A DNA stretch of 43,178 nt from an uncultured Bifidobacteriaceae bacterium (GTDB lineage Bacteria; Actinomycetota; Acidimicrobiia; IMCC26256; PALSA-555), in contig CAZCYE010000003.1 of the NCBI GenBank assembly GCA_964502775.1, positions 1-43,178 of the forward strand, written 5' to 3'. The notes below the pieces were generated by a model. That model made no database searches. It saw nothing but the letters and a program-made list of their open reading frames with translations, and was not told the origin of the DNA. Within the stretch, counting starts at the first letter, position 1. Each line of letters begins with the position of its first letter. A program made the translations under genes and the position numbers. This document shows positions 18,457-37,761 of this stretch, one piece after another.

Positions 18457-19464
18457 ATGTCCGTGTCCATGCGCCAGCAGATGCGGGTGGGCTCGTATCT
18501 GGTGCGCCAACGGCTGAAGGGCACCAAGCGATTCCCGCTGATCGTGGAGCTCGAGCCGCTGTTCGCGTGCAACCTCGAGTGTGCGGGTTGCGGCAAGATC
18601 CAGTACCCGACGGACATTCTGCGCCAACGGGTGAGCGTGGAAGATGCGGTGGGCGCCATCGAGGAGTCCGGGGCACCGATGGTGTCGATCGCCGGTGGCG
18701 AGCCCCTGCTGCACCCCGACATCGAGCGCATGGTGGACGAGCTCATCAAGCGCAAGCGCTTCGTCTACCTGTGCACCAACGGCGTGCTGATGCGACGCAA
18801 GCTCGATCGTTTCACGCCCTCGCCGTACTTCGCCTGGGCTGTGCACGTGGACGGGATGCGGGAGCGCCACGACGAGTCGGTATGCCGCGATGGCGTCTTC
18901 GACGAGGCGGTGGAAGCGATCAAGGAGGCGATGGCGCGTGGTTTCCGCGTCACCACCAACACGACGTTCTTCTCCAACGATTCACCGCAGACCGTGAGGG
19001 ACGTGCTCGACTTCCTCAACGACGAGCTCCATGTCGACGCGATGATGATCTCCCCCGGCTACGCCTACGAGAAGGCGCCGGACCAGGAGCACTTCCTCCC
19101 CGTCGAGGAGACCCAGAAGATGTTCCGAGACGCGTTCGGCGAAGGCCGGCGCAAGCGGTGGCGTCTCAACCACACGCCGTTGTTCCTCGACTTCCTGGAA
19201 GGCAAGGTCGACTACGAGTGCACGGCATGGGGAATCCCCAGCTACTCCGTGTTCGGATGGCAGCGGCCGTGCTACCTGATGTCGGACGGCTACGCGTCGA
19301 CGTACCGGGAGCTCGTGGACACGACGGACTGGAGCCGATACGGGCGGGGTCGGGATCCGCGATGCGCCAACTGCATGGCGCACTGCGGCTACGAGCCCAC
19401 GGCCGTCCTCGCCACCACACGGTCGCTCAAGGAGTCGATCCGCGCCACGATCTCCACGCGCTGA
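18457..19464 (+). CDS. hpnH: radical SAM adenosyl-hopene transferase
   Basis: Has the CxxxCxxC motif LFACNLECAGCGKIQYP, is 335 aa long, and sits in hopanoid-cluster context. Confidence 0.88.
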   Translation: MSVSMRQQMRVGSYLVRQRLKGTKRFPLIVELEPLFACNLECAGCGKIQYPTDILRQRVSVEDAVGAIEESGAPMVSIAGGEPLLHPDIERMVDELIKRKRFVYLCTNGVLMRRKLDRFTPSPYFAWAVHVDGMRERHDESVCRDGVFDEAVEAIKEAMARGFRVTTNTTFFSNDSPQTVRDVLDFLNDELHVDAMMISPGYAYEKAPDQEHFLPVEETQKMFRDAFGEGRRKRWRLNHTPLFLDFLEGKVDYECTAWGIPSYSVFGWQRPCYLMSDGYASTYRELVDTTDWSRYGRGRDPRCANCMAHCGYEPTAVLATTRSLKESIRATISTR

Positions 19465-25292: not shown

Positions 25293-25622
25293 CCCGAAGA
25301 TCCTCCTGCGCTAATGGGCGCCATCGGGGCAATTGGAGGATACGGAACCCTGCCGCCCGTGACGAGGATACCTTCGCGCGGACAGTGGTGCCGTGGCTAC
25401 ATTCGGGCTTGCGAACTCGCCCGGTATCCACGAGACTTGCGTGGCTGAAGTGACGGTAGCGAAGCCAACGTGACCAATGTTGCCAGGGAGGTGAGCGAAG
25501 GAAGAGGACGGATCGGGCAGGGCCTCGGATGAATTGGGGCTGAAGAGCCTTGAAGCGGAGCGTCACCTCTCCGGCCTCTAGCGGAGCCGGCGGGAGTTCC
25601 TCACGATTGGGGGGGATTCACT

Positions 25623-25712
25623 GTGAAGAAGGTGATTGCCCGTCTCGCGCTTATCGGGTCAAGCATCGCTGCGATCGTTCTCGCCGGTGGTGCTGGCAAG
25701 GGACTGCGCTAG
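25623..25712 (+). CDS. candidate 29-aa membrane micro-protein (MKKVIARLALIGSSIAAIVLAGGAGKGLR)
   Basis: Below the track cut-off. GTG 25623 is preceded by GGGGGGA with a 6-nt spacer. It has the same length and architecture as ORF 4405..4494 and lies 66 nt upstream of the HD-GYP-like gene. Confidence 0.35.
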   Translation: MKKVIARLALIGSSIAAIVLAGGAGKGLR

Positions 25713-25777
25713 TAGTTCACATCCTGACGAAATGCTCTGAGGTCCTGCCCGCTCCGTCCTCTACTTCCCGAGATGTG

Positions 25778-27097
25778 ATGTTGGGCCTGTCTCGCTTCCG
25801 GGCGTATTGCTTCACCATCGGTACTGCCGCGTGTGCTCTGGGCACGTGCCTCGGAGTGTTCGGGCCCATGCCTGTGCTCGAGCCGATTCTTGTACTAGGC
25901 GTGCTCTTCGCAGTCGCCGAGAACAGCAGCGTCGAGCTACCGAATCGTTCAAGTCTCAGCGCAAGTCTCATGCTGGGCATGGCAGCGGTAGTTGTTTTCA
26001 GCGATGAAGCAGCAGTTCTCGGTCCGCTGTTCGTCGGAATGTTTGGGTGTGCCTATCTACCTCAGATCCGGAATCGGCAGTGGGCCAAGGTCTTCTTCAA
26101 CCTTGGAAACTTCGGCCTCTCAACCGCTGCGGCGGCACTTGTCTTTGCCGGAGTGCCTGTTCAGGTCGACGATTCGATCGGACTGCAGTTGCTCGCATCG
26201 ATTGCGGCAGCGTTAACCTTTGCAACGGTCAACTCTCTCCTTCTCGTTCCTGCCGTTTCGATCCTGACAGGCAAGGGGAAGCGCGCCGTCCTTCAAGAGA
26301 TGTGGGTGAGCGACGCGCAGATTCTGCCCTTCGCGTTCTTGGGAGCCGTACTCGGTCGTCTCTACGTCGACATTGGTGCGCTCATCGTTCCGCTCATCGT
26401 CGTTCCGATCTTCATCGCGCGTCAGGCGTTCGCCTCGTACCTCGAATTGCGTGCCGCGCACGAAGCCACGCTCTCGACGCTCGTGCTCGCACTCGAGTCG
26501 AAGGACCGTTACACGGCCGGGCACGTCGAGCGCGTCGCCAACTTCTCCCACCAAATCGGCCTCGAGTTGGGACTGCGGCCCGGTCGACTCGAGCGGCTCC
26601 GCCAGGCGGCCCTGATGCACGACATCGGCAAGCTCATCGTGCCCAACCAACTGCTCAACAAGCCCGGTCGGCTCACACCGTCGGAGTACGAGCGCATCCG
26701 AGCGCACGAGCACGTCTCGGTGGAGCTGATGCGCCGCATCGACTTCCTCGCTCCGCTTGCGCCGAGCATCGCGGCCGAGCAGGACCATGAGCCGGAGACC
26801 CCGCTCGAGAGTCGGATCATCCACGTCGCCGATGCGTTCGACGCCATGACGTCCACTCGGTCGTACCGTCGGGCGCTCACGCAGGAGGTCGCGATAGCGG
26901 AGCTCCGCGCGAAGTCCGGTACCCAGTTCGACCTCGAGTGTGCCGAGGCGCTGATCCGGGTGATCGAGCGCTCGGGTGTCCGCTATGGCGATGGCCATGA
27001 GGAGTCCCGGGCCGACTTCTCGGTGCCGCCGCCGGTCGTGGGTACCGGCTCGGCCGGATTGGGCGACCTGGAGGGGCAAGACGAGGTCCGGTCGTGA
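25778..27097 (+). CDS. polytopic membrane protein with a C-terminal HD-GYP-family domain lacking the GYP loop
   Basis: Track ORF 25550..27097 is trimmed to ATG 25778, which lies downstream of the small ORF. The HD domain shows TAGHVERVA, LMHDIGKL, RAHEHV and IIHVADAFDAMTSTRSYR. The HHExxDGxGYP segment is replaced by the shorter QDHEPETPLESR. Confidence 0.8.
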   Translation: MLGLSRFRAYCFTIGTAACALGTCLGVFGPMPVLEPILVLGVLFAVAENSSVELPNRSSLSASLMLGMAAVVVFSDEAAVLGPLFVGMFGCAYLPQIRNRQWAKVFFNLGNFGLSTAAAALVFAGVPVQVDDSIGLQLLASIAAALTFATVNSLLLVPAVSILTGKGKRAVLQEMWVSDAQILPFAFLGAVLGRLYVDIGALIVPLIVVPIFIARQAFASYLELRAAHEATLSTLVLALESKDRYTAGHVERVANFSHQIGLELGLRPGRLERLRQAALMHDIGKLIVPNQLLNKPGRLTPSEYERIRAHEHVSVELMRRIDFLAPLAPSIAAEQDHEPETPLESRIIHVADAFDAMTSTRSYRRALTQEVAIAELRAKSGTQFDLECAEALIRVIERSGVRYGDGHEESRADFSVPPPVVGTGSAGLGDLEGQDEVRS

Positions 27098-28269
27098 ACC
27101 GCCCGATGCGCTTCCTGGCAATCTTCGGCGTGGCGCTCGGCGCCGCAGCCGTCGCCGCGCTCGCGGATGCCCCCGCGCATGCGGTCGATCTGGTGGTGTT
27201 GGGCGGCGCGCTCGTGGCATCGGAGCAGCTGGAGCTGCGACCGACCGGCCGAGCGGCGCTCCCGTTGTCCTTCGCTTTGGTGGTGGTGCTGGTGCGGGCG
27301 GCTACTCCCGGCGAGTTCGTCGTGATCGTGGGTGTCGGCCTGGCCGTGGCAATGCTGCTCCGACCAGGCTCGTACAGTGAGCGAGGACTGCTGTGGTGCG
27401 AGCGCCTGGCCGAGGGGCTGGGTGCAGGCGCGGTGTACCGACTGATCGCCGAGTCGTTCGGTAGCCAGCACTCGGAGGCCAGGGTGCTGGCCGCGCTCGC
27501 CGGCGCCGCGGTCACCCAGATCGTGGTGGCGGACCTCGTGGTGCTCGCGCGGGAGCACCGGTTGGCTCCCGTCCGAGCCCGGGGCGCCGATCTCGCCCTG
27601 GTCACGAGCGGCATGTTGATGGCCGTGGGCTACGGGGGCATCGGTGGCAGTGGCCGCCTCGGGCTCTGGGGGCCCTTGCTGTTCTCGATCCCGCTGCTCG
27701 CGGCGTGGTACTCGTTCGAGTTGCTCGAGCGCACGCGCCGAAGCTTCCGCCAGACGGTGCGCGCGTTGGGCGTCGCACCAGAGCTCGGTGGATTGGTGCG
27801 GCCGGGACACGTCGAGCGCGTGGCTCAACTCGCCGTCGACATGGGTCAGCACGTCGGTCTGTCGTTCGTCCAGCTCACCGATCTCGAGACCGCGGCCTGG
27901 TTGCATCACCTCGGTGCGGTGTGCCTTGACGAGCCCGCCGAGGGAGAGCAGCACGACCCGCGGGAGGTCGCCCGAGCGGGAGCATCCATGCTCCGTGCCA
28001 GTGAGGCACTCGCAGCGGCAGGGGAGGTGGTTGCCGCCGAACCGCTGTTGCACCGGATGGCACCCGGGATCGGGCCGTCGTCGTCAGCTGCACTTGCCGG
28101 GCAGATCCTCAAGGTCGCAAGCGCGTACGACGAGCTGACCGAAGGCGATCACGCCCATGCCGCGTGGGCCGTGGAGGCGCTGTACACCGGCCCCGGCTAC
28201 GTCTACGACGGGCGCGTGCTGGGCGCACTCGAGCGCGCACTCACCGCGCGCGGTTGGCTCACTGACTGA
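27094..28269 (+). CDS. paralogous polytopic membrane protein with a degenerate HD-type domain (HD replaced by HH)
   Basis: GTG 27094 overlaps the upstream stop. It has the same N-terminal membrane architecture. PGHVERVAQLAVDMG is retained, but MHDIGK is replaced by LHHLGA and there is no GYP. Confidence 0.7.
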   Translation: MNRPMRFLAIFGVALGAAAVAALADAPAHAVDLVVLGGALVASEQLELRPTGRAALPLSFALVVVLVRAATPGEFVVIVGVGLAVAMLLRPGSYSERGLLWCERLAEGLGAGAVYRLIAESFGSQHSEARVLAALAGAAVTQIVVADLVVLAREHRLAPVRARGADLALVTSGMLMAVGYGGIGGSGRLGLWGPLLFSIPLLAAWYSFELLERTRRSFRQTVRALGVAPELGGLVRPGHVERVAQLAVDMGQHVGLSFVQLTDLETAAWLHHLGAVCLDEPAEGEQHDPREVARAGASMLRASEALAAAGEVVAAEPLLHRMAPGIGPSSSAALAGQILKVASAYDELTEGDHAHAAWAVEALYTGPGYVYDGRVLGALERALTARGWLTD

Positions 28270-28813
28270 CCGCGCGCCGACTCTTGGTGCGCCGGCTCTG
28301 GAAGTACGCGAGCTCGCACACGCCGACGCCCAGGACCAGGTCGCCGAACGAGATCAACATGTCGAAGGGCTCCGGTAGGAGGATCTTGTCGCCGAGGATG
28401 CCGAGCAGGTCCTCCTCGCTCGCCTGACGGTGCTTGACCGTCTGCTCCACCGGCTTGCGGATCCGGTTGCCCTGCGCGTCGTTGCCGATCGGCTTGGTGG
28501 GCATTCCCTGGTTGAGCCCGATCACCAGCGCGTTCATCGCGATTCCGATGGCGATGATCCCGAAGCCTCGTGCGAAGACGTTGGCCAGGCAGAAGGCGAG
28601 GATCAGGGCGTACGACGCCATCAGCGCGGCAAAGCCGATGGTCTCGATCTGATCTTTGGGGATGTCGACGTATTCGAGGGCGATCTGGATGCCAAAGCCG
28701 ACGAGGAGCATCCAAGGTGCCATCACCCGCACGCGAGCCAGTCGGGCGAAGCTTCCACGCGTCAGGATCACGACGAGAGCGGCCGCCGCGATCGTGAAGA
28801 CGAACAGCCACAC
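28259..28813 (-). CDS. DUF5317-family polytopic membrane protein (second copy)
   Basis: GTG start. The N-terminus WLFVFTIAAAALVVILTRGSFARLARVRV parallels that of the 3606..4190 product. Motifs are LNQGMPTKP, ILGDKIL and ISFGDLVLGVG. Its 3' end overlaps the convergent gene by 11 nt. Confidence 0.68.
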   Translation of the reverse strand: MWLFVFTIAAAALVVILTRGSFARLARVRVMAPWMLLVGFGIQIALEYVDIPKDQIETIGFAALMASYALILAFCLANVFARGFGIIAIGIAMNALVIGLNQGMPTKPIGNDAQGNRIRKPVEQTVKHRQASEEDLLGILGDKILLPEPFDMLISFGDLVLGVGVCELAYFQSRRTKSRRAVSQ

Positions 28814-29018
28814 GCCATGACGCTAGCGATCGGCGGCCTCGGCGGGATGGACTGATCGTCCTGCTCGGTCCGCGAGCTCCGGCCGAGACTCTTCGCGGCC
28901 GTCTTCGTGACGTGTTTCGTGGTGGCTATTTCTTCCCGATCCCCGTAGACAGGATCGAACCGCGTGGTTATGTTCGCCGGGCCGGGGATCCCGGGCGGGA
29001 AGTCGGAGAGGCGGGACC

Positions 29019-29735
29019 ATGGGGATGCCGAGCAGTACCCCGAATCATGACCGCGACGAGTTCGCGCTCTTGATTGCTCACTATCGAGACGATGCCTACC
29101 GGTTGGCTCGGCGCCTGGTGAGAAGCGACGCCGAGGCCGAGGATCTCACCCAGACCGCGGTGTTGAACACCTTGCGGCGCGCTGAGCACATTCAGAGCGC
29201 GGGTCACGTGAAGGCGTACCTGCTCACGACCGTTCGCAACCTCTGGCGGAACCACCTGCGCGCCCAGAGTCGCCGCCGGTTCGTGAGTTCGGACACGGTC
29301 GAGCAGTTCCCGTCGGGCGACATTGGACCGGAGGAGCAGGCACTCACTGCCCTCGATGCGGCGCTGGCGGGCATTGCGTTTCGATCTCTCTCGGACACCA
29401 GTCGCGAGGTGATTCGGCTCCGCTACCTCGAGGGCTTGGGGTTCTCGGAGCTTGCTGACCAACTCGGGATCTCGCCGGTCGCGGCCCGTCAGCGGGCCCA
29501 TCGCGCCCGCGAGGAGCTCGTGGGCGCATGCATCGATTTCGCCGCCCGGGAGGGAAGCGGTGCGTGTGCGTGGGTGCGCGAGCGCTTCGGGCGGTACTTC
29601 CGTGGCCGGCTGACCCAGCCGACTCGAGCCCGCGTCGAGGGGCACTTGACGCGCTGTGCAGAGTGTCGCAACGGATACGACGACCTTGTGGATCTCTACG
29701 GCCGCCGCTTCTCGCGACTCAAGGGTGAAGCGTGA
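29019..29735 (+). CDS. ECF sigma-70 factor with a C-terminally fused zinc-binding anti-sigma (ZAS, HxxxCxxC) segment
   Basis: Region 2 is DLTQTAVLNTLR..VKAYLLTTVRNLWRNHLR. Region 4 is REVIRLRYLEGLGFSELADQLGISPVAARQRAHRAREEL. The same frame then reads GACAWVRERF...VEGHLTRCAECRNGY. Confidence 0.85.
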   Translation: MGMPSSTPNHDRDEFALLIAHYRDDAYRLARRLVRSDAEAEDLTQTAVLNTLRRAEHIQSAGHVKAYLLTTVRNLWRNHLRAQSRRRFVSSDTVEQFPSGDIGPEEQALTALDAALAGIAFRSLSDTSREVIRLRYLEGLGFSELADQLGISPVAARQRAHRAREELVGACIDFAAREGSGACAWVRERFGRYFRGRLTQPTRARVEGHLTRCAECRNGYDDLVDLYGRRFSRLKGEA

Positions 29736-31279
29736 AGGATTGCACGCTCCCAGTTGGAGTCATTTCGGTGATGCCGACTCGGGCAGAGCCCCGCAAGCTC
29801 CGGATCACTTCACTGGTCCTGGCTGCCTTCCTGATCTTGGCCCCGGTGCTCATGGCACTCGCTGGAACGCCAGTGGAGCTCAATTGGACGGCAGGAGTCC
29901 TTCTGTTTCTCTCTTTCGTCGCTGCCCAGAAGGACGCCGTCTTCAGCGACGAGACAGCTATTAGCGAGAGCATCCTTGTTGCACACGCGGCCGTTGGCGT
30001 TGCGGTGGGAACTGGTCAGTTGCTTATCGCGTTCTCATGTGGATTGCTCGGCGGTGTGCACTTGTCACATATCCGCGAACGGTCCCTGACGAAGATCGTG
30101 ATCAATGCTGGTGCGATCGGCCTATCTGCATTGGCGGCTGGAGCGATCGCTTACGGATTGGGAGGTGCTAGTCCAAATAGCCTCCGTATGCTCTACTCGG
30201 GTGCTGTAGCGACATGTGTGTTCTGGGTTCTCAACAATTCGATTATTGGTTTCGCCATCTCTGCTGCGCAAGGTAGGGGTGCCCCGAGAACAATCGCAGG
30301 GCTCATCAGGTCAGAAGCAGAGATGCTCGTGTTCGCGTTCCTGGGCTTCCTGACCGGATACCTGTTCGTCGAGGTGGGGACCTGGGCCGGGACCATCGGT
30401 CTGGTCGCCCTCCTCGTGCTGGTCGATGTCGCGGTCATCCGTCGACCGCCTCACATTCCGAAGCGACGGTTCTTCGCGAGTGTGGCGCAGGTCGCGCTGG
30501 CGGGCGTGGTGGTCGTCGCTGCCATCGTGAGTGCGGTGGTCGAGACGTTCCCCGATCGGTGGGGCTTCGTGGCCTTGCTCGGTGCCATGGCGACCGCCGC
30601 GGTGGTGATGTCCCGCCTGCCGGTGGTGCCCGGCGCGCTGCCTTCGACGCTCGCGATCGTGTTGGCCGGTGCCGTGTTCGGCGCCGAAGCGCCGATCGCT
30701 GCTCCACTCACCGCTGGCGTGACGATGGGAATCGTCGCGTGTGTGCTCGGCCGGCGGCGGTCGATACTCGCCGCGAGCTCCGAGTTGGCCGCTGCCGGCT
30801 GCGGCGGGCTCGCTGCTGGGATCGTGTTCCTGGAGCTTCCGCTGCGGGAGACGAGTTCCCTCCCCACGTTCATTGGCGTCGTGCTCGCAGCGGGCGTGGC
30901 AGTCGTCGGCGCGCGCCACCTCTTCCTCGGCGCGATGTTGACGGCTCGTCTCGGGAGGGAGGCACGTCGCGTCGCACTCGAGTTGAGCGCCGCGGACATC
31001 CCGAGCATCGCGGTGACGGCCGTGGGTGGAGTCCTCGCCTGGTGGGCGGTTCGCGATGGCATCGAGGGGTCGCTCCTGGTGGTGCTCGCCGTCGCTGCGG
31101 TCGCGTTCGGGGTCTACCGACTCGGTCGTACCCGTTGGGACCCACGAACGGGCATCCTGATCGAGGACGACCCCGTGGATCCCGAAGAGCTGTTGACGGC
31201 ACTGCGGAGCACGGTGCTGGATTGTCGTCCGGTTCGAGTGCGTGAGCCGACGCTGGAGTTGCCGACTCGTACACAGTGA
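29732..31279 (+). CDS. large polytopic membrane protein with two copies of the shared sensor-like membrane module and no recognisable soluble output domain
   Basis: GTG 29732 overlaps the sigma stop (GTGA). Alternative starts are GTG 29768 and ATG 29771, after GGAG. There are 12 or more hydrophobic helices, and module signatures occur near AAQKDAVFSDETAISESIL and FLELPLRETSSLPTFIGVVL. Confidence 0.7.
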   Translation: MKDCTLPVGVISVMPTRAEPRKLRITSLVLAAFLILAPVLMALAGTPVELNWTAGVLLFLSFVAAQKDAVFSDETAISESILVAHAAVGVAVGTGQLLIAFSCGLLGGVHLSHIRERSLTKIVINAGAIGLSALAAGAIAYGLGGASPNSLRMLYSGAVATCVFWVLNNSIIGFAISAAQGRGAPRTIAGLIRSEAEMLVFAFLGFLTGYLFVEVGTWAGTIGLVALLVLVDVAVIRRPPHIPKRRFFASVAQVALAGVVVVAAIVSAVVETFPDRWGFVALLGAMATAAVVMSRLPVVPGALPSTLAIVLAGAVFGAEAPIAAPLTAGVTMGIVACVLGRRRSILAASSELAAAGCGGLAAGIVFLELPLRETSSLPTFIGVVLAAGVAVVGARHLFLGAMLTARLGREARRVALELSAADIPSIAVTAVGGVLAWWAVRDGIEGSLLVVLAVAAVAFGVYRLGRTRWDPRTGILIEDDPVDPEELLTALRSTVLDCRPVRVREPTLELPTRTQ

Positions 31280-31294
31280 GTACGCTCGGCGGCC

Positions 31295-31513
31295 GTGTTC
31301 GAGCTCCGTGCGATGGTGACGGCGAGCGTGCGCGAGATCATCGTCGATGAGGGTCAACTCGTCGCCGAAGGTGACGAGATCGCGATCCTGGAGGCGGCGA
31401 CCGGCGAGGTCGTGGTCGTCACCGAGATCCCCGGCGTCGTCCGAGAGCTGCATGTCGAACCGGGTGACATGGTCGATCCGGGCACCCTGATTGCCCTGAT
31501 CGACGAGGCGTGA
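31295..31513 (+). CDS. small biotinyl/lipoyl-domain (BCCP-like) protein lacking the modifiable lysine
   Basis: The 72-aa product is ASVREIIVDEGQLVAEGDEIAILEAATGEVVVVTEIPGVVRELHVEPGDMVDPGTLIALI. This follows the biotinyl-domain pattern, but EAMKME is replaced by EAATGE. Confidence 0.7.
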   Translation: MFELRAMVTASVREIIVDEGQLVAEGDEIAILEAATGEVVVVTEIPGVVRELHVEPGDMVDPGTLIALIDEA

Positions 31514-31523
31514 ACTCCTCCGC

Positions 31524-32447
31524 TCAGTAGTTCGCCGGCAGGATGCGTTCCAGGAAGAAGTAGAACAACGCCAGCGAGACCGCGAACGGGATCGCGCCGA
31601 GGATCCATGTTGTCCACCGCGGGTGCCGGTGGAAGCCGAGCCACCACAGCGCGCCGAGGAGTGCGGCGACCAGGCCCGAGTACAGGGTCGGCATCGTCGA
31701 ACCGCCCTTGCCCGAGAGATCACCCTCGTTGAACGAGGGATTCCCACCCCGACCGCCGGGGAGCGGCGTCTCGCCCTCCGGTAAGTGCGCTTTCACGACC
31801 AGGCGCTGCGCCGTCGAGAACTTGGGGTTGCAGGTCGTCAGTGTGAGGATCGCCTCGAAGCGCGTGTCTACGAGCACTTCGACGTCATCTGGGTTTACCA
31901 CCTGCTTGTCGAACACTTCATAGGTGTAGGTGCCGGTCACGGTGCGCACGATGATCTCGTCGCCGTTCTCGAGGAGGTCCAGATCACCGAACGGCGCCCC
32001 GTACGTCACCCGGTGACCGGCGATCGCGGCGTTGCCGGCCTGGCCCGGTAGCGGGGTCTCGGGGTAATGGCCGGGGCCCTTGCGCAAGTCGACGCGGCCG
32101 ACGCCTTCGACGACGATGGTGTCGAGCCCGAGACGCGGGATCCGCAGGACCGCGAGCGCCTCACTGTCAGGCGGCGGTTCCGGGATGGGCAGCGTCGTGG
32201 TCGTGGTCGATGGAGAGGAAGTCGGCGAAGGGGTCGTGGTGGTCATCGATCCGCGGGGAGTCGAGGTGGTCGTCGGCACCTCGATCGGGTCGGTAGTCCG
32301 GATGAGAGCCGAGAGGTCGTCTCGTAGCCGGTCCTGCTCACGCGAGGTGTAGAGCCCAGTACCCCACAGTTGATACGCGACGAAGAGCAGCGTGAGGATC
32401 CCGAGCGTGATCAATGTCCGCCCAATGGCCGCGACCACCCTCCGCAC
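31524..32447 (-). CDS. sortase (class E-like) with an extra C-terminal membrane segment pair
   Basis: Has an N-terminal TM anchor, the catalytic His in AIAGHRVTYGAPF and the active-site motif LTLTTCNP. The C-terminal ~60 aa contain two hydrophobic helices. Confidence 0.85.
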   Translation of the reverse strand: MRRVVAAIGRTLITLGILTLLFVAYQLWGTGLYTSREQDRLRDDLSALIRTTDPIEVPTTTSTPRGSMTTTTPSPTSSPSTTTTTLPIPEPPPDSEALAVLRIPRLGLDTIVVEGVGRVDLRKGPGHYPETPLPGQAGNAAIAGHRVTYGAPFGDLDLLENGDEIIVRTVTGTYTYEVFDKQVVNPDDVEVLVDTRFEAILTLTTCNPKFSTAQRLVVKAHLPEGETPLPGGRGGNPSFNEGDLSGKGGSTMPTLYSGLVAALLGALWWLGFHRHPRWTTWILGAIPFAVSLALFYFFLERILPANY

Positions 32448-32556
32448 AGCCTGATCCTATGGGCGGACGGCGGGTAGGTCGCGGCTCCGGGCGCCTGCAT
32501 TCGCTCGGCCGCGCGGGCGGTCCGTATGCTCTGCGCATCGCTTCCACGGAGGCGCT

Positions 32557-33234
32557 GTGCCGCCCGTAGTCCGTCTCCGTTCTGCCGTGTGCCTCATCGG
32601 TCGTTTTCCCGCACTCGCGGGCGTCGATCTCGACGTGAATGAGGGTGAGGTGCTGTTGATCTCGGGCGCGAACGGTGTGGGCAAGACCACCCTGCTCCGT
32701 CTCTTGGCGGGGCTCCTCCCTCTCCATTCGGGGACTGCCGAAGTGCTCGGTTCCGATCTGAGCCGCGATCGGCGCCGTCACCGTCGGGAGCTCTCGTTCA
32801 TGGGGCACGAGACCTTCTGTTACGACGACCTCACCGTGAGGGAAAATCTTCGTTTCGCGGAACGCGCCTCGGAGGCGCCGCCGGGAGCGGGGGACCGGGC
32901 GATCGACCAGGTTGGCCTCGACCGGCTTGCCGACGTCGTGTACCAGCGCCTCTCGGCCGGACAACAGCGACGCGTGGCGCTGGCCGTTGCCCTCTCGCGT
33001 GCGCCGCACCTTCTTCTCCTGGACGAGCCCCACGCCGGCTTGGATGCCCAGGGCCGCGACCGCCTTGATGCGGTGCTCTCAGCGGCGCCCGGGGCCGGGG
33101 TCACGATCCTCATCGCCTCGCACGAGCTCGAACGGGCGCGGCCCCTCGTGTCGCGCGAAGTGATGATGACCGCAGGGCAGGCCGCTGGTTCGTTGGCGGT
33201 CGCCGAGCCCGCGATCCCGGTGGCGCAGTCGTGA
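32557..33234 (+). CDS. ccmA: heme exporter ABC ATPase CcmA
   Basis: Walker A is GANGVGKTTLLRLL, the signature is LSAGQQRRVALA and Walker B is LLLLDEP. It is followed by ccmB and ccmC. Confidence 0.85.
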   Translation: MPPVVRLRSAVCLIGRFPALAGVDLDVNEGEVLLISGANGVGKTTLLRLLAGLLPLHSGTAEVLGSDLSRDRRRHRRELSFMGHETFCYDDLTVRENLRFAERASEAPPGAGDRAIDQVGLDRLADVVYQRLSAGQQRRVALAVALSRAPHLLLLDEPHAGLDAQGRDRLDAVLSAAPGAGVTILIASHELERARPLVSREVMMTAGQAAGSLAVAEPAIPVAQS

Positions 33235-33905
33235 CGCTCTGGCGTGAGGTCGCGCTCGTCGCCGGCAAGGATCTGCGAATCGAGGCGCGATCACGCGTCG
33301 TGCTCCAACAGATTCTTCCCTTCGGTCTCATCGTGTTGCTGCTCTTCGCGTTCGCGCTCGATCCCGATCGCGGGGTGTTGCAACGAGTCGCTCCGGGCCT
33401 CTTCTGGGTGACGGTCCTGCTGGCCGTGCTCTTGGCCGTGGGCCGCTCGTTCCAGCTCGAGACCGAGAACGGCGCTCGTGAGGGACTCCGGCTGTCCTCC
33501 ATGGATGGAAGTGCCCTCTTCCTCGGCAAGGCCGCCGCGGTCGCCGCGCAGCTGCTGGTGCTGGAAGCGCTGCTGACGGTCGGCGTGGTCGTGCTGTTCG
33601 AGGTCGAGCTCGCGTCGATCGGGCCGCTGGTGGCAAGTGCCGCGGCCGCGACTGTCGGTCTGGCTGCGGCCGGTACGGTCTACGGCGTCCTCGCGGTCGG
33701 GTTGAGAGTTCGGGAGACCCTCTTGCCGGTGTTGATCCTTCCGGTCACGGCACCGGTACTGCTCGGTGCGACCCGCGCGTGGGAGGCATCGTTCGACGGT
33801 ATGCCATCCGATGCCTGGCCCTGGGTCGGTCTCCTCGCCATCTTTGCCGTGCTGTTCACCGGGATCGGGATGCTCGCGTTCGGCCCCTTGTTGGAGGAAT
33901 CGTGA
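33231..33905 (+). CDS. ccmB: heme exporter membrane protein CcmB
   Basis: A six-helix membrane protein located between ccmA and ccmC, with GTGA overlaps on both sides. Confidence 0.8.
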   Translation: MTLWREVALVAGKDLRIEARSRVVLQQILPFGLIVLLLFAFALDPDRGVLQRVAPGLFWVTVLLAVLLAVGRSFQLETENGAREGLRLSSMDGSALFLGKAAAVAAQLLVLEALLTVGVVVLFEVELASIGPLVASAAAATVGLAAAGTVYGVLAVGLRVRETLLPVLILPVTAPVLLGATRAWEASFDGMPSDAWPWVGLLAIFAVLFTGIGMLAFGPLLEES

Positions 33906-34663
33906 GGCTCTTGAGCCCGCGAGCGGGGCGGCTGGTCAGTTGGTCGGCCGCGGCATCGCTGGTGGTGCTCGCCATCTTCGGGCTGTGGGTCGCGCCTCCC
34001 GACGCGGTGCAGAGCGATGCCCAACGCCTCATGTACTTGCACGTACCGGCAGCGTGGATCGCATACCTCGCCTTCGGCGTCACCGCGCTGTCGTCCGCGC
34101 TGTACCTCTGGCGGAGAACTCGCTCGCCGGTCTGGGACCGGTTGGCCGGCGCGTCCGCGGAGCTGGGAGTGGTGTTCACGGGGTTGACGCTGGTTCTTGG
34201 TTCGTTGTGGGGCCGCCCGATCTGGGGCGTGTGGTGGGCTTGGGATGCTCGCCTCGTGACGACTGCCGTCCTCTTCTTCTTGTACCTCGGCTATCTCGCG
34301 CTGCGCCGGGTTCCCGGTCTTCCGGAGGCCAATGCCAAGCGGTCGGCGATCGCCGCGCTCGTGGCGTTTGTCGACGTTCCCATCGTCCACTTCTCGGTGA
34401 CGTGGTGGCGCACGTTGCACCAAGACGCGACGGTGTTCAACCCCGAGCTCAAGGCCAACATCCACGGTGTCATGGCCTTCACCCTCTGGTGGGGCGTGCT
34501 CGCGTTCACGTTGGGCTACGTCGCCCTGATGGATCGGCGGTACCGGCTCGCGGTGCTGGAGGAGGGCCGCCAGGATCGTGAGCTGGCCCGTGCGATCGAG
34601 GAGCGCGTGCGGGGGGCGGGCACGACCGTGGCTCCCGAGCGGGTCGAGGTGGGAGCGCCCTGA
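33902..34663 (+). CDS. ccmC: heme exporter / heme lyase-family protein CcmC
   Basis: Trimmed to GTG 33902. Has the Trp-rich motif WGRPIWGVWWAWDARL and conserved His residues in flanking loops. Confidence 0.88.
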   Translation: MRLLSPRAGRLVSWSAAASLVVLAIFGLWVAPPDAVQSDAQRLMYLHVPAAWIAYLAFGVTALSSALYLWRRTRSPVWDRLAGASAELGVVFTGLTLVLGSLWGRPIWGVWWAWDARLVTTAVLFFLYLGYLALRRVPGLPEANAKRSAIAALVAFVDVPIVHFSVTWWRTLHQDATVFNPELKANIHGVMAFTLWWGVLAFTLGYVALMDRRYRLAVLEEGRQDRELARAIEERVRGAGTTVAPERVEVGAP

Positions 34664-34782
34664 TGCGGTATGCCGAGTACGTCGTCACAGGCTGGGTGCT
34701 CACCGGCGCGGTGCTGGTCACCTATTCCGTCCGGCTCCGCCAGCGGCTCCGTCGGGCGGAGCGCCTCGACGAACGGGCATGA
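34663..34782 (+). CDS. ccmD: heme exporter protein CcmD (39 aa, not in the ORF track)
   Basis: ATG 34663 shares one base with the ccmC stop (TGATG), and its stop overlaps the ccmE ATG (ATGA). The product MRYAEYVVTGWVLTGAVLVTYSVRLRQRLRRAERLDERA has one TM followed by a basic tail, as in CcmD. Confidence 0.6.
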   Translation: MRYAEYVVTGWVLTGAVLVTYSVRLRQRLRRAERLDERA

Positions 34783-35189
34783 CCCGGTCGCCGCGCGCTC
34801 TCTTCGCGGTCGGGCTCTGCGCGGCGGCGATCGCAGCCATCGTCGTGCTGGCGGTCGTGCTGTCGGAGAACGTGGTCTACTTCCGGACCGTCTCCGAGGC
34901 GGTCGCGGAGCGAGATGACCCCGGGCGGTTCCGCATTGCCGGTGAAGTGGTTCCGGGCACCATCGTGGCGACCCGCAACGGGGTGCGCTTCGAGATCACT
35001 GACGGCGATGCCACGGCCGAGATCGACCATCGAGGTGATCCTCCCGATCTCTTCGAGCCCGGGGCGCCGGTGGTGTGCGAGGGGCGCTGGTCGCGTTCGG
35101 GTGCCTTCTCATCGGACCGGATCCTCATCAAGCACGGCAGCGAGTACACGCCTCCCGAAGTGAAGGCGTCGGGGGCCCGCGCATCGTGA
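34779..35189 (+). CDS. ccmE: heme chaperone CcmE
   Basis: Has an N-terminal anchor and an OB-fold region. The heme-binding motif KHGSEYTPPEV matches KHDENYTPPEV of E. coli. Confidence 0.9.
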   Translation: MTRSPRALFAVGLCAAAIAAIVVLAVVLSENVVYFRTVSEAVAERDDPGRFRIAGEVVPGTIVATRNGVRFEITDGDATAEIDHRGDPPDLFEPGAPVVCEGRWSRSGAFSSDRILIKHGSEYTPPEVKASGARAS

Positions 35190-37222
35190 AGGCGTCGCTG
35201 GGCATGTTCGGCGTCGCGCTCGGGGCCGCGTCCTCGGTCCTGGGGATCTCGTTCCTTGCTCAGGGCCTCGTCACGGGGGACGGGCGCTGGCTCGTGCTCG
35301 GTCGCCGCCTCGTGTTCGTCGTGGCCGCCGGCGCCGTGATCGCGGTGATCGCGATGGAGTGGGCGCTGATCACCCATGACTTCTCGCTCGAGTACGTGGC
35401 CAACAACAACGCTCGCGGGACCCCGTTGCTGTACACCATCGCCGGGTTGTGGGCCGCGCTCGAGGGTTCGATCCTGTTGTGGACGCTCGTGCTCGCGGGA
35501 TTCCTGGTGTTCGTGGTCCGTCGGTTCCGGTCCCGGGCCACCGATCCGCTCGTCGGGTGGGCGACGCTCGTGATGCTGGTCGTGGCGCTGTTCTTCTTCG
35601 CGCTCATGCTCACGCACGACGCGAATCCGTTCAAGACGCTCGCCGTCGTGCCCGCCGACGGACGGGGACCCAACCCTCTGCTCCAGAACCACCCCCTCAT
35701 GGCGTTCCATCCGCCGATGCTCTATCTCGGCTACGTGGGATTCACCGTGCCGTTCGCGTTCGCGATCGCGGCGCTGATCACCGGGCGTTTCGGTGAGGGC
35801 TGGCTGGCTGACACGCGTCGCGCGACCCTCGTGGCTTGGGGCTTCCTCTCGGTCGGGATCGTCCTCGGCGCGTGGTGGAGCTACGAGGTGCTCGGTTGGG
35901 GCGGCTACTGGGCGTGGGACCCGGTCGAGAACGCGTCGCTGTTGCCGTGGCTCACGGGCACGGCGTTCATCCACTCGGTGATCGTCCAGGAGCGCCGCGG
36001 GATGCTGCGAGTCTGGAACCTCTCGCTCGTCATCGCCACGTTCTGTCTCACGATCTTGGGGACGTTCCTCACCCGCAGCGGGGTGCTCAACTCGGTCCAC
36101 TCGTTCACCGAATCCGACGTCGGGCCCTGGCTCCTCGGCTTCCTCGCGTTCGTCGCTGCCGTTGGCATCGGCCTGATCGCATGGCGCGGCGACCGACTGC
36201 GCGGACCCGGGCGAATCGACTCGCCGGTGTCGCGCGAGACGGCATTCCTCGCCAACAACCTGGCATTCGCCGGACTCGCGTTCGTGGTGCTCCTCGGCAC
36301 CGTGTACCCGCTCCTGGCCGAGGTGCTCCAGGGGCGACAGGTCTCCGTAGGGGAGCCGTACTTCAACCGCATGGCTACCCCCATCGGGCTCGTGCTGCTG
36401 TTCCTGATGGCGGCGGCGCCGGCGCTTCCCTGGCGGACCACGAGCGCCGACGCGCTCCGTCGTCGCTTGATCGTGCCGGCCTGGGCCGGTGCGATCACGA
36501 TGGTGCTCACGTTGGCCGCCGGAACCGAGGACGTGGCCGCGGTCATCACCTTCGGGCTGGCGGCGTTCGCGCTCGCAGGGATCGCTCGCCAGTTCGCCGT
36601 GGGGATTCGGACTCGGGGACAGGCCCAAGGAGAATCGCTCGGCGCGGCAGCGCTGCGAACCGTCACCGGCAACCCGCGCCTGTACGGAGGGCTCGTGGTG
36701 CACGTCGGGGTCGTGCTGATCGCGGTCGCGCTGGCGTCGTCCGGTGCGTTCTCGACCGCCCGTGAGGTCCGCCTCGACCGAGGAGAGTCCGCGACGGTCA
36801 GGGGCTACACGGTGACCTACCTGGGCTCCGACGTGACCACATCGTCCCAGAAGCGCACGATCACCGCGCGGGTGGGTATCGAGCGCGGGGGCAGCGATCT
36901 CGGCGTGTACGCACCCGCAGTGTCGATCTTTCCCAATGCGACCACATCGATCGGCACGCCGTCGGTGCGCACCGGACTGTTGCGCGACATCTACCTGACG
37001 ATCATCTCGTCGCCGGCCGAAGGCGGGCAAGTGACGTTGCGTGTGGCCGTCAACCCGATGGTGCTCTGGCTCTGGGTGGGCGGTGGGGTCCTCGCGCTGG
37101 GAACGCTGGTGGCGTTGGCCCCCAGCCTCCGACGTCGCGGCCGAGCGCCGGCTTCCCTCGATGCCGGGCCGGGCGATTTGGTTCCACCCCAGGTCGAGCA
37201 GTCCGAGGCGGTGCCTGTATGA
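35186..37222 (+). CDS. ccmF: cytochrome c heme lyase subunit CcmF
   Basis: Trimmed to GTG 35186. Has the Trp-rich motif WGGYWAWDPVENASLLPWL and is about 678 aa and polytopic. Confidence 0.9.
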   Translation: MKASLGMFGVALGAASSVLGISFLAQGLVTGDGRWLVLGRRLVFVVAAGAVIAVIAMEWALITHDFSLEYVANNNARGTPLLYTIAGLWAALEGSILLWTLVLAGFLVFVVRRFRSRATDPLVGWATLVMLVVALFFFALMLTHDANPFKTLAVVPADGRGPNPLLQNHPLMAFHPPMLYLGYVGFTVPFAFAIAALITGRFGEGWLADTRRATLVAWGFLSVGIVLGAWWSYEVLGWGGYWAWDPVENASLLPWLTGTAFIHSVIVQERRGMLRVWNLSLVIATFCLTILGTFLTRSGVLNSVHSFTESDVGPWLLGFLAFVAAVGIGLIAWRGDRLRGPGRIDSPVSRETAFLANNLAFAGLAFVVLLGTVYPLLAEVLQGRQVSVGEPYFNRMATPIGLVLLFLMAAAPALPWRTTSADALRRRLIVPAWAGAITMVLTLAAGTEDVAAVITFGLAAFALAGIARQFAVGIRTRGQAQGESLGAAALRTVTGNPRLYGGLVVHVGVVLIAVALASSGAFSTAREVRLDRGESATVRGYTVTYLGSDVTTSSQKRTITARVGIERGGSDLGVYAPAVSIFPNATTSIGTPSVRTGLLRDIYLTIISSPAEGGQVTLRVAVNPMVLWLWVGGGVLALGTLVALAPSLRRRGRAPASLDAGPGDLVPPQVEQSEAVPV

Positions 37223-37761
37223 GGCATCCCACCCGTTGGGCCGGTGCGGGCATCGGAGCGGTGGTGGCCGCGGTGAGCATCGTGCTGGCCGTGCAAGTGG
37301 GCAGCGACTCGCAGCGGGAGTCGTCGACCAACCAGCTCGTGGGACGCGATGCGCCCGCGATTGCATTGCGATCCTTCGACGGCGAGCCCATCACGGACGA
37401 TGAGCTGTCGGGCCGCGCCGTCATCGTCAACTTCTGGAACTCCTGGTGCATCCCGTGCCGCGACGAGCTCCCGGCCCTGAAAGCGTTCTTCGCACGCCAC
37501 GGTGACGATCCCGACTTCGTGCTCCTCGGAATCGTGCGGGACGACTCGGCCAGTGCTGCCGAGCGGTATGCGGTCGCGGAGCAGATGGACTGGCTGCTGG
37601 CCGTCGATCCGGATTCACGCGCCGCGCTCGACTTCGGCACCCGAGGCCAACCCGAGACGTTTGCCATCTCACCCCGTGGTCAGATCGTGGGGTTCCATCT
37701 CGGGCCCGCCAGCCTCGCCGCGCTGGAGGAGTTGTTGCTCGCAGCTCGAAGCGGGCGATGA
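37219..37761 (+). CDS. ccmG: thiol:disulfide oxidoreductase CcmG/DsbE (TlpA-like thioredoxin)
   Basis: Has an N-terminal anchor and the motif VNFWNSWCIPCRDELP (CxxC). Confidence 0.85.
   Translation: MRHPTRWAGAGIGAVVAAVSIVLAVQVGSDSQRESSTNQLVGRDAPAIALRSFDGEPITDDELSGRAVIVNFWNSWCIPCRDELPALKAFFARHGDDPDFVLLGIVRDDSASAAERYAVAEQMDWLLAVDPDSRAALDFGTRGQPETFAISPRGQIVGFHLGPASLAALEELLLAARSGR

Follow-up and report, generated by a model that had tools for sequence, protein, structure and literature searches.

The window analyzed here spans 43,178 nt of contig CAZCYE010000003.1 of assembly GCA_964502775.1 (positions 1-43,178, forward strand). At 29019..29735 it carries a gene for an extracytoplasmic function (ECF) sigma factor that continues, in the same chain, into a zinc-associated anti-sigma (ZAS) domain. 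This sigma-ZAS fusion is a real, conserved gene of Acidimicrobiia, and the multi-pass membrane protein encoded immediately 3′ of it is a conserved partner, not an insertion. We propose that the two genes constitute a split module of Acidimicrobiia, in which sigma factor, ZAS domain and membrane sensor are distributed over two proteins; for this composite model as a whole we regard the case as evenly balanced. The locus is probably not a remodelled SigH/RsrA redox switch. The gene and its parts are listed below; pLDDT (predicted local distance difference test) values are from AlphaFold2 (AF2).

29019..29735, plus strand: ECF sigma factor with a C-terminally fused ZAS domain (zf-HC2), 238 aa (Pfam, NCBIfam; kept as a single open reading frame in relatives).
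29070..29276, plus strand: sigma2 domain, residues 18-86 (Pfam Sigma70_r2, E 4e-15; AF2 helices at 8-86, pLDDT 85-95).
29328..29543, plus strand: sigma4 domain, residues ~104-175 (Pfam Sigma70_r4_2 at 122-167, E 4e-11).
29559..29702, plus strand: three-helix ZAS domain, residues ~181-228, with predicted Zn ligands C183/H209/C213/C216 (Pfam, AF2).
29703..29732, plus strand: C-terminal tail, residues 229-238, variable, disordered and charged (AF2 pLDDT <50 at 230-238).

The Pfam models Sigma70_r2, Sigma70_r4_2 and Sigma70_ECF each scored above cutoff, as expected of an ECF (group 4) sigma factor. The NCBIfam sigma70-ECF model TIGR02937 gave 93.7 bits against a cutoff of 42.9, and the Foldseek and phmmer matches of the protein were ECF sigma factors. 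The ZAS domain starts 8-12 residues past sigma4 in the same chain. Here residues 183-217 cover the full zf-HC2 profile, positions 1-35 (36.8 bits, gathering score 22.2; E 4e-9), and the motif C183-x25-H209-x3-C213-x2-C216 (CAWVRERFGRYFRGRLTQPTRARVEGHLTRCAEC, residues 183-216) agrees with the ZAS pattern H/C-x(23-26)-H-x3-C-x2-C. Exactly 22 residues follow this motif. The only cysteines of the 238-aa protein are at positions 171, 183, 213 and 216, with none in the linker (residues 87-103). No hydrophobic or transmembrane (TM) segment was found in the 238-aa chain.

In the AF2 model of the sigma-ZAS protein, built from 120 sequences (pLDDT 80, predicted TM-score (pTM) 0.53), sigma4 consists of helices 104-123, 126-137, 142-149 and 153-175, and Cys171 lies within the last one, near its end. 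The ZAS helices 181-187/190-195, 200-212 and 214-228 are predicted at pLDDT 83-96 and are followed by disorder. The length and sequence of the tail differ between relatives. A fold search with the model returned sigma chains only and is uninformative on ZAS docking. Class I anti-sigma domains (ASDs) consist of four helices, of which I-III bind sigma4 and IV binds sigma2 regions 2.1/2.2 (PMC7406223). In the sigma-ZAS protein, helix IV is absent: the chain ends 22 residues past the CxxC, and three ASD helices are predicted. The first-pass annotation of the window, made from the sequence alone, had described an ECF sigma factor and a zinc motif in one open reading frame, with a minimal anti-sigma domain of only about 22 residues past the CxxC. 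The Pfam and NCBIfam matches and the exact motif match bear out the former, and the residue count and the three AF2 helices agree with the latter.

A search over 5.8 billion proteins gave 282 relatives of the sigma-ZAS protein, the best 120 of which are described further. When one genome per GTDB species was scanned, 29 loci were obtained; their labels are Acidimicrobiia, Actinomycetes/Actinomycetota and, in a few cases, Bifidobacteriaceae/Bifidobacterium. Below, the near clade denotes 20 loci, to which the promoter and repeat counts refer, and the distant clade denotes loci L025-L032 (39-44% identity). The best 120 relatives are 55-68% identical; nearly all are 224-258 aa long (extremes, 206 and 275 aa), and almost all possess PF13490 in addition to the sigma domains. 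Taken over more than 120 clusters and 26 of the 29 loci, the fusion is kept at 39-65% identity. In the family alignments (n=30 and n=120) and in the distant clade, C183, H209, C213 and C216 are invariant. C171 shows at most slight variation in both alignments, and it is also kept in the distant clade. A further cysteine, C219, is kept in at least 90% of the sequences and is Gly in the window protein.

The open reading frame and the motif are uninterrupted in 26 of the 29 loci, with 20-35 residues past the CxxC; one of the 26 is cut by a contig end. Among the remaining loci, one runs off the contig edge, and the gene is interrupted in L023 (7001-7700) and L030 (6983-7700). Both are Microflora Danica (MFD) metagenome-assembled genomes (MAGs), which we take to be long-read assemblies, and the breaks are probably homopolymer frameshifts rather than pseudogenes. 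An apparent distant fused relative in Myxococcaceae (L040) proved to be an ordinary 219-aa ECF sigma factor. Since the same continuous reading frame and motif recur in 26 of 29 loci and in nearly all of the 120 clusters, a frameshift or missed stop is excluded for the window gene. The third-position GC is 0.69-0.90 along the whole open reading frame, including 29500-29540, where the first-pass annotation had advised a check for a frameshift or missed stop. Thus, there is no frame break in this segment. The same annotation had held that lack of Cys/His conservation would speak against it, and none of the four ligands varies in the family. An assembly or frameshift artefact joining a sigma gene to a separate anti-sigma gene was a possibility a priori only, to which the broken versions in L023 and L030 could be added. 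Uninterrupted reading frames in independent assemblies, from many projects and sequencing platforms, and uniform codon-position GC over the junction stand against it, and we give it practically no weight.

The second gene of the proposed module follows directly.

29732..31279, plus strand: partner, multi-pass membrane protein of 515 aa (GTG start at 29732) or 502 aa (ATG start at 29771), with an N-terminal MASE9-like module at residues ~50-240.

This gene lies immediately 3′ of the sigma-ZAS gene in every locus that reaches far enough, in both clades (tblastn match in 23 loci). This holds even for the distant clade, which has a sortase rather than DUF5317 upstream. In the relatives, the start of the partner is located -11 to +2 nt from the sigma stop codon, and a 4-nt overlap is the commonest arrangement. 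The first-pass annotation had supposed that a membrane protein was inserted into the locus; its constant presence and spacing downstream contradict this. If the window partner starts at GTG 29732, the two genes share 4 nt at the sigma stop (GTGA), as they do in most of the relatives. The alternative start, ATG at 29771, is used by the database gene call and is preceded by GGAG at 29756-29759. Because the partner usually overlaps the stop codon of the sigma-ZAS gene, translation of the two genes is probably coupled. Fusion of the sigma-ZAS and membrane reading frames was found in none of the 26 intact relatives.

MASE9 has been described as a promiscuous module with eight TM segments, probably a sensor of intramembrane ligands, that is fused to HD-GYP or GGDEF-EAL outputs (bioRxiv 10.1101/2021.11.05.467447). 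One such protein is encoded 2 kb 5′ of the partner locus.

25550..27097, plus strand: paralogous sensor with MASE9 and HD-GYP (HD_5/HD) domains (Pfam MASE9 25.6 bits against 24.3; HD_5 79.9 bits).

Residues 62-238 of the partner are 28% identical to the MASE9 region of this protein (BLASTP, E 7e-14). When the partner family was aligned with the MASE9 regions of the HD-GYP orthologues by hhalign, the probability of the match was 99.9% (E 6.8e-33, 199 columns). The Pfam MASE9 model (PF20972) does not match the window partner, and the L008 orthologue reaches 16.1 bits against 24.3 (E 0.011). Judged by these alignments, the N-terminal half of the partner is homologous to MASE9. With the membrane protein as query, a word-indexed search retrieved no homologue besides the query. 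An exhaustive HMMER search of 1.84 billion representatives found only 90 clusters. Nearly all of them align from their own N-terminus, with lengths of 385-505 aa, and almost all are stand-alone proteins. The exceptions are one triple tandem repeat and a few weak matches at the bottom of the list with HD-GYP-like C-termini. No Pfam output domain was detected in the partner or in the relatives scanned.

The triple repeat is the 823-aa metagenomic protein P0122, which consists of three tandem copies of a MASE9-like module of ~260 aa. This arrangement indicates that the module is an independent unit. In the 515-aa partner, no internal duplication was detectable by BLASTP. The AF2 model of the partner (pLDDT 82.5) gave nothing significant against PDB folds (best E 0.13, TM-score <0.2), and it shows a weak partial resemblance to RibU, the S component of an energy-coupling factor (ECF) transporter. 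Past the last TM segment and an Arg cluster, the near-clade partners have a cytoplasmic C-terminal motif, D[DE]xLLxxVxxAxLD (EELLTALRSTVLD in the window). The helix-I motif of the ZAS domain differs with the class of partner: it is RY[LF]RG[RQ]L with partners of ~500 aa and R[YF]HRG[LM]L with partners of ~390 aa, and the split is exact. We also considered whether the N-terminus of the partner could supply helix IV. The lengths fit (22 + ~24 residues from the CxxC to TM1), and this N-terminus is poorly conserved and not obviously helical; the idea is a weak one.

The first-pass annotation had assigned the zinc motif to the RsrA/RshA type because of its spacing. The C-x25-H-x3-C-x2-C spacing is indeed the same as that of RsrA C11/H37/C41/C44. 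However, it is not specific to RsrA, since the generic zf-HC2/ZAS model has it (profile positions 1-35). Jung et al. traced RsrA redox sensitivity to the Cys-flanking residues E39, E40, L45 and E46 in K33FEHHFEECSPCLEK47 (PMC3177212). The counterparts of these residues in the window protein are T211, R212, R217 and N218, at positions that differ among family members. When a family ZAS profile (25 segments) was searched against PDB, RslA (E 0.007), ChrR (0.011), DdvA (0.25) and RsiW (0.35) were retrieved, and no RsrA chain appeared at E<=10, the RsrA entries being assumed to be present there. We take 5FRF and 5FRH to be these entries. The C-terminal 69 residues alone matched only RslA (E 0.33). 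In the profile alignment to RslA and ChrR, the helix-I signature YxxGxL is followed by HLxxCxxC. Of the RsrA assignment, the spacing therefore stands, whereas the redox residues are absent and RsrA was not retrieved.

The first-pass annotation had further suggested a remodelled SigH/SigR-type locus. Against PDB, the best phmmer matches of the sigma domain were Mycobacterium tuberculosis (Mtb) SigE (2e-11), an unnamed ECF (2.6e-10) and SigL (1.6e-9), then SigK and Escherichia coli sigmaE. SigH (1.8e-6) and the sigma2 domain of SigR (0.009) stood lower in the same list. Among actinobacterial NCBIfam subfamilies, the SigE family scored best, at 81 bits and short of its cutoff; the top 25 NCBIfam matches included no SigH model. 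By these comparisons, the sigma domain is not specifically SigH/SigR-like and is no closer to these than to other ECFs. With a sigma domain closer to SigE/SigL, no RsrA determinants and a conserved membrane gene, the suggestion is not supported.

The region upstream of the sigma-ZAS gene was analyzed by pattern search.

28946..28974, plus strand: sigmaA-type promoter of the sigma-ZAS gene, TAGACA-17 nt-TATGTT, 44 nt before the ATG.

This is the sole sigma70-like site in 28700-31700, where 0.2 sites were expected. Of the 20 near-clade loci, 19 have the pattern T-x-G-[AC]-[CA]-A / N17 / TA-x-x-T-T with a spacer of exactly 17 nt, and the classic promoter positions (T1, G3, A6 / T1, A2, T6) are conserved in this clade. 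No ECF-type promoter ([GTC][GT]AAC-N15-18-[CG]GT[CT]) was found upstream of the sigma gene or its neighbours. From its promoter sequence, the sigma-ZAS gene looks constitutively transcribed, and a sigmaA-type promoter without an ECF-type promoter fits post-translational control.

A direct repeat, G[CT]GAC-N17-GTGAC with a 22-nt period, is located ~25-30 nt 5′ of the -35 element (window 28885-28912). Its upstream half is degenerate in the window. The same repeat lies ~150 nt 5′ of the sigma start in L004-L023; at this position, 13 of the 20 near-clade loci have it. Elsewhere in all loci it was found only 3 times; in total, 16 were observed against ~3 in shuffled sequences. The repeat may serve as an operator or constitute a second, ECF-like promoter (GnGAC-N16-CGTGAC). 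Further upstream, a conserved ACGCTAGCG is located at 28814-28829 on the minus strand, directly 5′ of the DUF5317 start. On the coding strand, ACGCTAGCG contains TAGCGT, which ends 6 nt before the GTG, a -10-like hexamer placed as for a leaderless mRNA. The enoyl-CoA hydratase gene of the relatives has an analogous TACGAT ~8-11 nt 5′ of its GTG start.

We propose the following mechanism for the two-gene module. The sigma-ZAS gene would be constitutively transcribed from the sigmaA-type promoter, and its product would be made in an auto-inhibited or membrane-sequestered form. The ZAS bundle would pack in cis on sigma4, like helices I-III of other ASDs, and would bar the sigma factor from promoters and/or from core RNA polymerase. 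The MASE9-like partner would be the signal input; it would either tether the complex to the membrane or provide the missing contact on the sigma2 side, for which its conserved cytoplasmic C-terminal amphipathic motif is a candidate. The sigma factor would then be set free or unmasked by a signal perceived in the membrane. An alternative or additional input may be oxidation at the Zn-thiolate center, perhaps resolved by the extra conserved Cys171. What the analysis establishes is the fusion with its conservation and invariant ligands, the pairing of the two genes, the homology of the partner to MASE9 and the type of promoter; cis-inhibition, binding of the partner and the nature of the signal are inferred. 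The stronger statement, that a MASE9-type sensor controls transcription by docking an ECF sigma factor via a cis-fused ZAS domain that lacks helix IV, the anti-sigma function being split between sigma chain and partner, is tentative, and we lean toward doubting it. If it is true, the neighbouring MASE9-HD-GYP paralogue would let one membrane signal set both the cyclic di-GMP (c-di-GMP) level and a sigma regulon.

Several points weigh against this mechanism. The cis contact between ZAS and sigma4 is proposed by analogy, and the pTM of the AF2 model is only 0.53. Since helix IV is absent, sigma2 would stay free, and the inhibition could be weak. The putative link between the sigma-ZAS protein and the membrane protein is drawn from gene pairing, and the membrane gene could simply be a co-transcribed regulon member. 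In the window itself, coupling is likely and the 4-nt overlap is uncertain, because the database gene call uses ATG 29771. The distant-clade partners lack the C-terminal motif, and the N-terminus of the partner shows little conservation. Finally, the exact split of the helix-I motif by partner class may reflect co-evolution, and it is also compatible with shared descent only.

The conserved neighbourhood of the two genes was also compared. Its 5′ part consists of the MASE9-HD-GYP gene, a second HD-like membrane protein, DUF5317 (minus strand), in most relatives an enoyl-CoA hydratase, and then sigma-ZAS and the partner. After the partner come a carboxyltransferase or major facilitator superfamily (MFS) gene, a 72-aa biotin/lipoyl protein, an enoyl-CoA hydratase and a sortase (minus strand), the carboxyltransferase/MFS genes being variable. 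The order ends, after the sortase, with cytochrome c maturation (Ccm) system I genes and a thiol-disulfide oxidoreductase. In the distant clade, the sortase is directly 5′ of the sigma-ZAS gene. The MASE9-HD-GYP gene is probably conserved upstream context, outside the sigma module itself. Its TTG start at 25550 is probably too far upstream, since relatives align only from residue ~67-87. It belongs to an overlapping gene pair (25550-28269) that is conserved 5′ of DUF5317 in most relatives; the product of the second gene of the pair is a membrane protein that matches HD_5 only weakly (E 6.6e-4) and may be a degenerate HD-GYP.

31295..31513: 72-aa biotin/lipoyl-domain gene, similar to biotin carboxyl carrier protein (BCCP) (NCBIfam PRK05889, 54.9 bits against a cutoff of 75).

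The first-pass annotation had compared this gene with the M. tuberculosis sigH-rshA-TB7.3 neighbourhood. The echo is real in so far as TB7.3 (Rv3221c) adjoins rshA (Rv3221A) in mycobacteria (PMC11126594), and two scanned orthologues of the 72-aa protein pass the PRK05889 equivalog (97-101 bits against 75). However, in the relatives the variable carboxyltransferase or MFS gene lies between the sigma/partner pair and the 72-aa gene, and the window protein has lost the biotinyl-lysine, having EAATGE where the orthologues of 11 relatives have ESMKME. The TB7.3-type neighbour is thus at most weak evidence of an ancient shared neighbourhood. The L016 copy is also without the lysine. In relatives, the 72-aa gene is flanked by a carboxyltransferase or MFS gene and by an enoyl-CoA hydratase gene; the window has neither of these flanking genes. 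Downstream, 31524-37761 carries the sortase (minus strand), CcmB, a CcmC-like protein, CcmF (system I) and a thioredoxin-fold AhpC/TSA/Redoxin protein. At 18457-19464, and unrelated to sigma-ZAS, a radical SAM protein containing DUF3463 precedes a gene whose product has a lysyl-phosphatidylglycerol-synthase-like TM domain. Neither Rfam families nor tRNAs were found in the window.

Zinc motifs are present in ~48% of membrane-bound ASDs, where they are often structural, as in RsiW, and are enriched in soluble ASDs, consistent with redox sensing (PMC7406223). Both of the readings considered next draw on this observation. In one, the protein is an autonomous cytoplasmic thiol/disulfide switch of the SigR-RsrA/SigH-RshA type: on oxidation, the ZAS domain would lose its zinc and acquire a disulfide, the sigma factor would be freed, and the membrane protein would be incidental. 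The CHCC ligands at RsrA spacing, the soluble nature of the domain, the extra conserved Cys171 as a possible disulfide partner 12 residues before C183, the TB7.3-type gene nearby, as at the mycobacterial rshA locus, and the downstream thiol-disulfide oxidoreductase and Ccm genes are all in agreement with such a switch. Yet the RsrA redox determinants are neither present nor conserved, the family ZAS profile does not match RsrA, the sigma domain is nearer to SigE/SigL, and the promoter is of the sigmaA type and not an autoregulated one of the SigR/SigH type. Moreover, the membrane partner is strictly conserved, while the BCCP-like gene is non-adjacent in relatives and degenerate in the window. 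We consider this switch unlikely.

If, instead, the zinc finger is purely structural, the control could be exerted by C-terminal proteolysis, or at the level of transcription via the upstream repeat, and the membrane protein would be a co-expressed target. Such a structural role is known for RsiW, and proteolytic activation has been proposed for the fused extensions of ECF115 and ECF52 (PMC8999054); the tail of the window protein is disordered and variable, and the direct repeat 5′ of the promoter is a possible operator. Against this, no protease gene is conserved in the neighbourhood, and the tight stop/start coupling and the helix-I split by partner class suggest a stoichiometric partnership. 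This reading appears unlikely as well. Metal sensing as in CorE (ECF238, possibly ECF287), where metal bound to a Cys-rich extension activates DNA binding instead of lifting an inhibition, would accord with the five to six conserved Cys/His in the last ~70 residues and with ECF287, which is described as actinobacterial with a Cys-rich C-terminal extension (PMC7826278). However, the extension is a bona fide zf-HC2/ZAS domain with YxxGxL that aligns to RslA and ChrR, and not a Cys-rich domain of ~20 aa; the sigma2-sigma4 linker has no CxC, and no metal efflux or homeostasis genes are found in the conserved neighbourhood. A CorE-type sensor is very unlikely.

The fusion itself will be unsurprising to specialists. 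The truncated ASD with a conserved MASE9-like partner is a concrete new arrangement. Fused-extension ECFs have been catalogued and few of them characterized, and the fused-ZAS groups ECF48/52/53 are thought to need membrane proteolysis. The family described here offers a minimal soluble sigma-ZAS protein of 238 aa, with a five-residue Cys/His set and a separable membrane partner. If the split anti-sigma function is true, the family would be a tractable system for asking what a three-helix ZAS bundle alone does to a sigma factor. It would also be the first case of a MASE9 sensor with a transcriptional output, and in evolution it would stand between separate sigma/anti-sigma pairs and complete fusions. 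If it is false, the family is one more uncharacterized ECF group from an uncultured actinobacterial class. We know of no ligand for MASE9, and of no signalling partner outside c-di-GMP enzymes.

Among known systems, RsrA/RshA (ECF12) share with the window protein the CHCC ligands at identical spacing and a cytoplasmic, soluble domain. RsrA differs in being a separate four-helix protein of ~105 aa whose redox determinants are absent here, and no sequence similarity was detected beyond the motif; the sigma factor, too, does not look specifically SigH/SigR-like. RslA (the anti-sigma factor of Mtb SigL) and ChrR are the best anti-sigma matches to the ZAS profile over helices I-III, with weak E-values of 0.007-0.011. 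Both are stand-alone proteins with helix IV plus a TM helix (RslA) or a cupin (ChrR). CorE/ECF238 proteins have a Cys-rich domain of ~20 aa and a CxC in the linker, and the window protein has neither. ECF287 and some members of ECF270, the latter with a fused extension, also have a ZAS or Cys-rich segment tied to the sigma factor, and both are catalogued as uncharacterized groups (PMC7826278, PMC8999054). The portions of these two texts at hand do not mention a MASE9-like partner for any ECF group. The sigma-ZAS family may already be within some ECF Hub group. The N-terminal module of the partner is homologous to that of MASE9-HD-GYP and MASE9-GGDEF-EAL proteins; those known sensors are fused to c-di-GMP output domains, whereas the partner has no output domain and is paired with the sigma-ZAS gene.

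The closest known design is that of ECF48/52/53 (e.g., SCO4117), in which the ECF core is followed by a pfam13490 ZAS domain in one chain. These groups are restricted to Actinobacteria, and the extension is presumed to be auto-inhibitory (PMC5826349, PMC8999054). As the first-pass annotation had noted, the TM region of such fused-ZAS ECFs is part of the same chain: ECF48/52/53 have the ZAS domain and 1-2 TM segments in cis (PMC8999054). Their extensions can reach ~400 aa and include 1-2 or more TM segments as well as a long sensor outside the cytoplasm (proline-rich region, carbohydrate-binding module). In contrast, the sigma-ZAS chain ends 22 residues past the CxxC, has no TM segment, and leaves the membrane part to a separate multi-pass MASE9-like protein without an obvious extracytoplasmic domain. 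In design, the locus is a split version of these fusions, and what is new in it is a chain that ends after helix III, lacks a TM segment and is accompanied by a separate, multi-pass MASE9-like partner.

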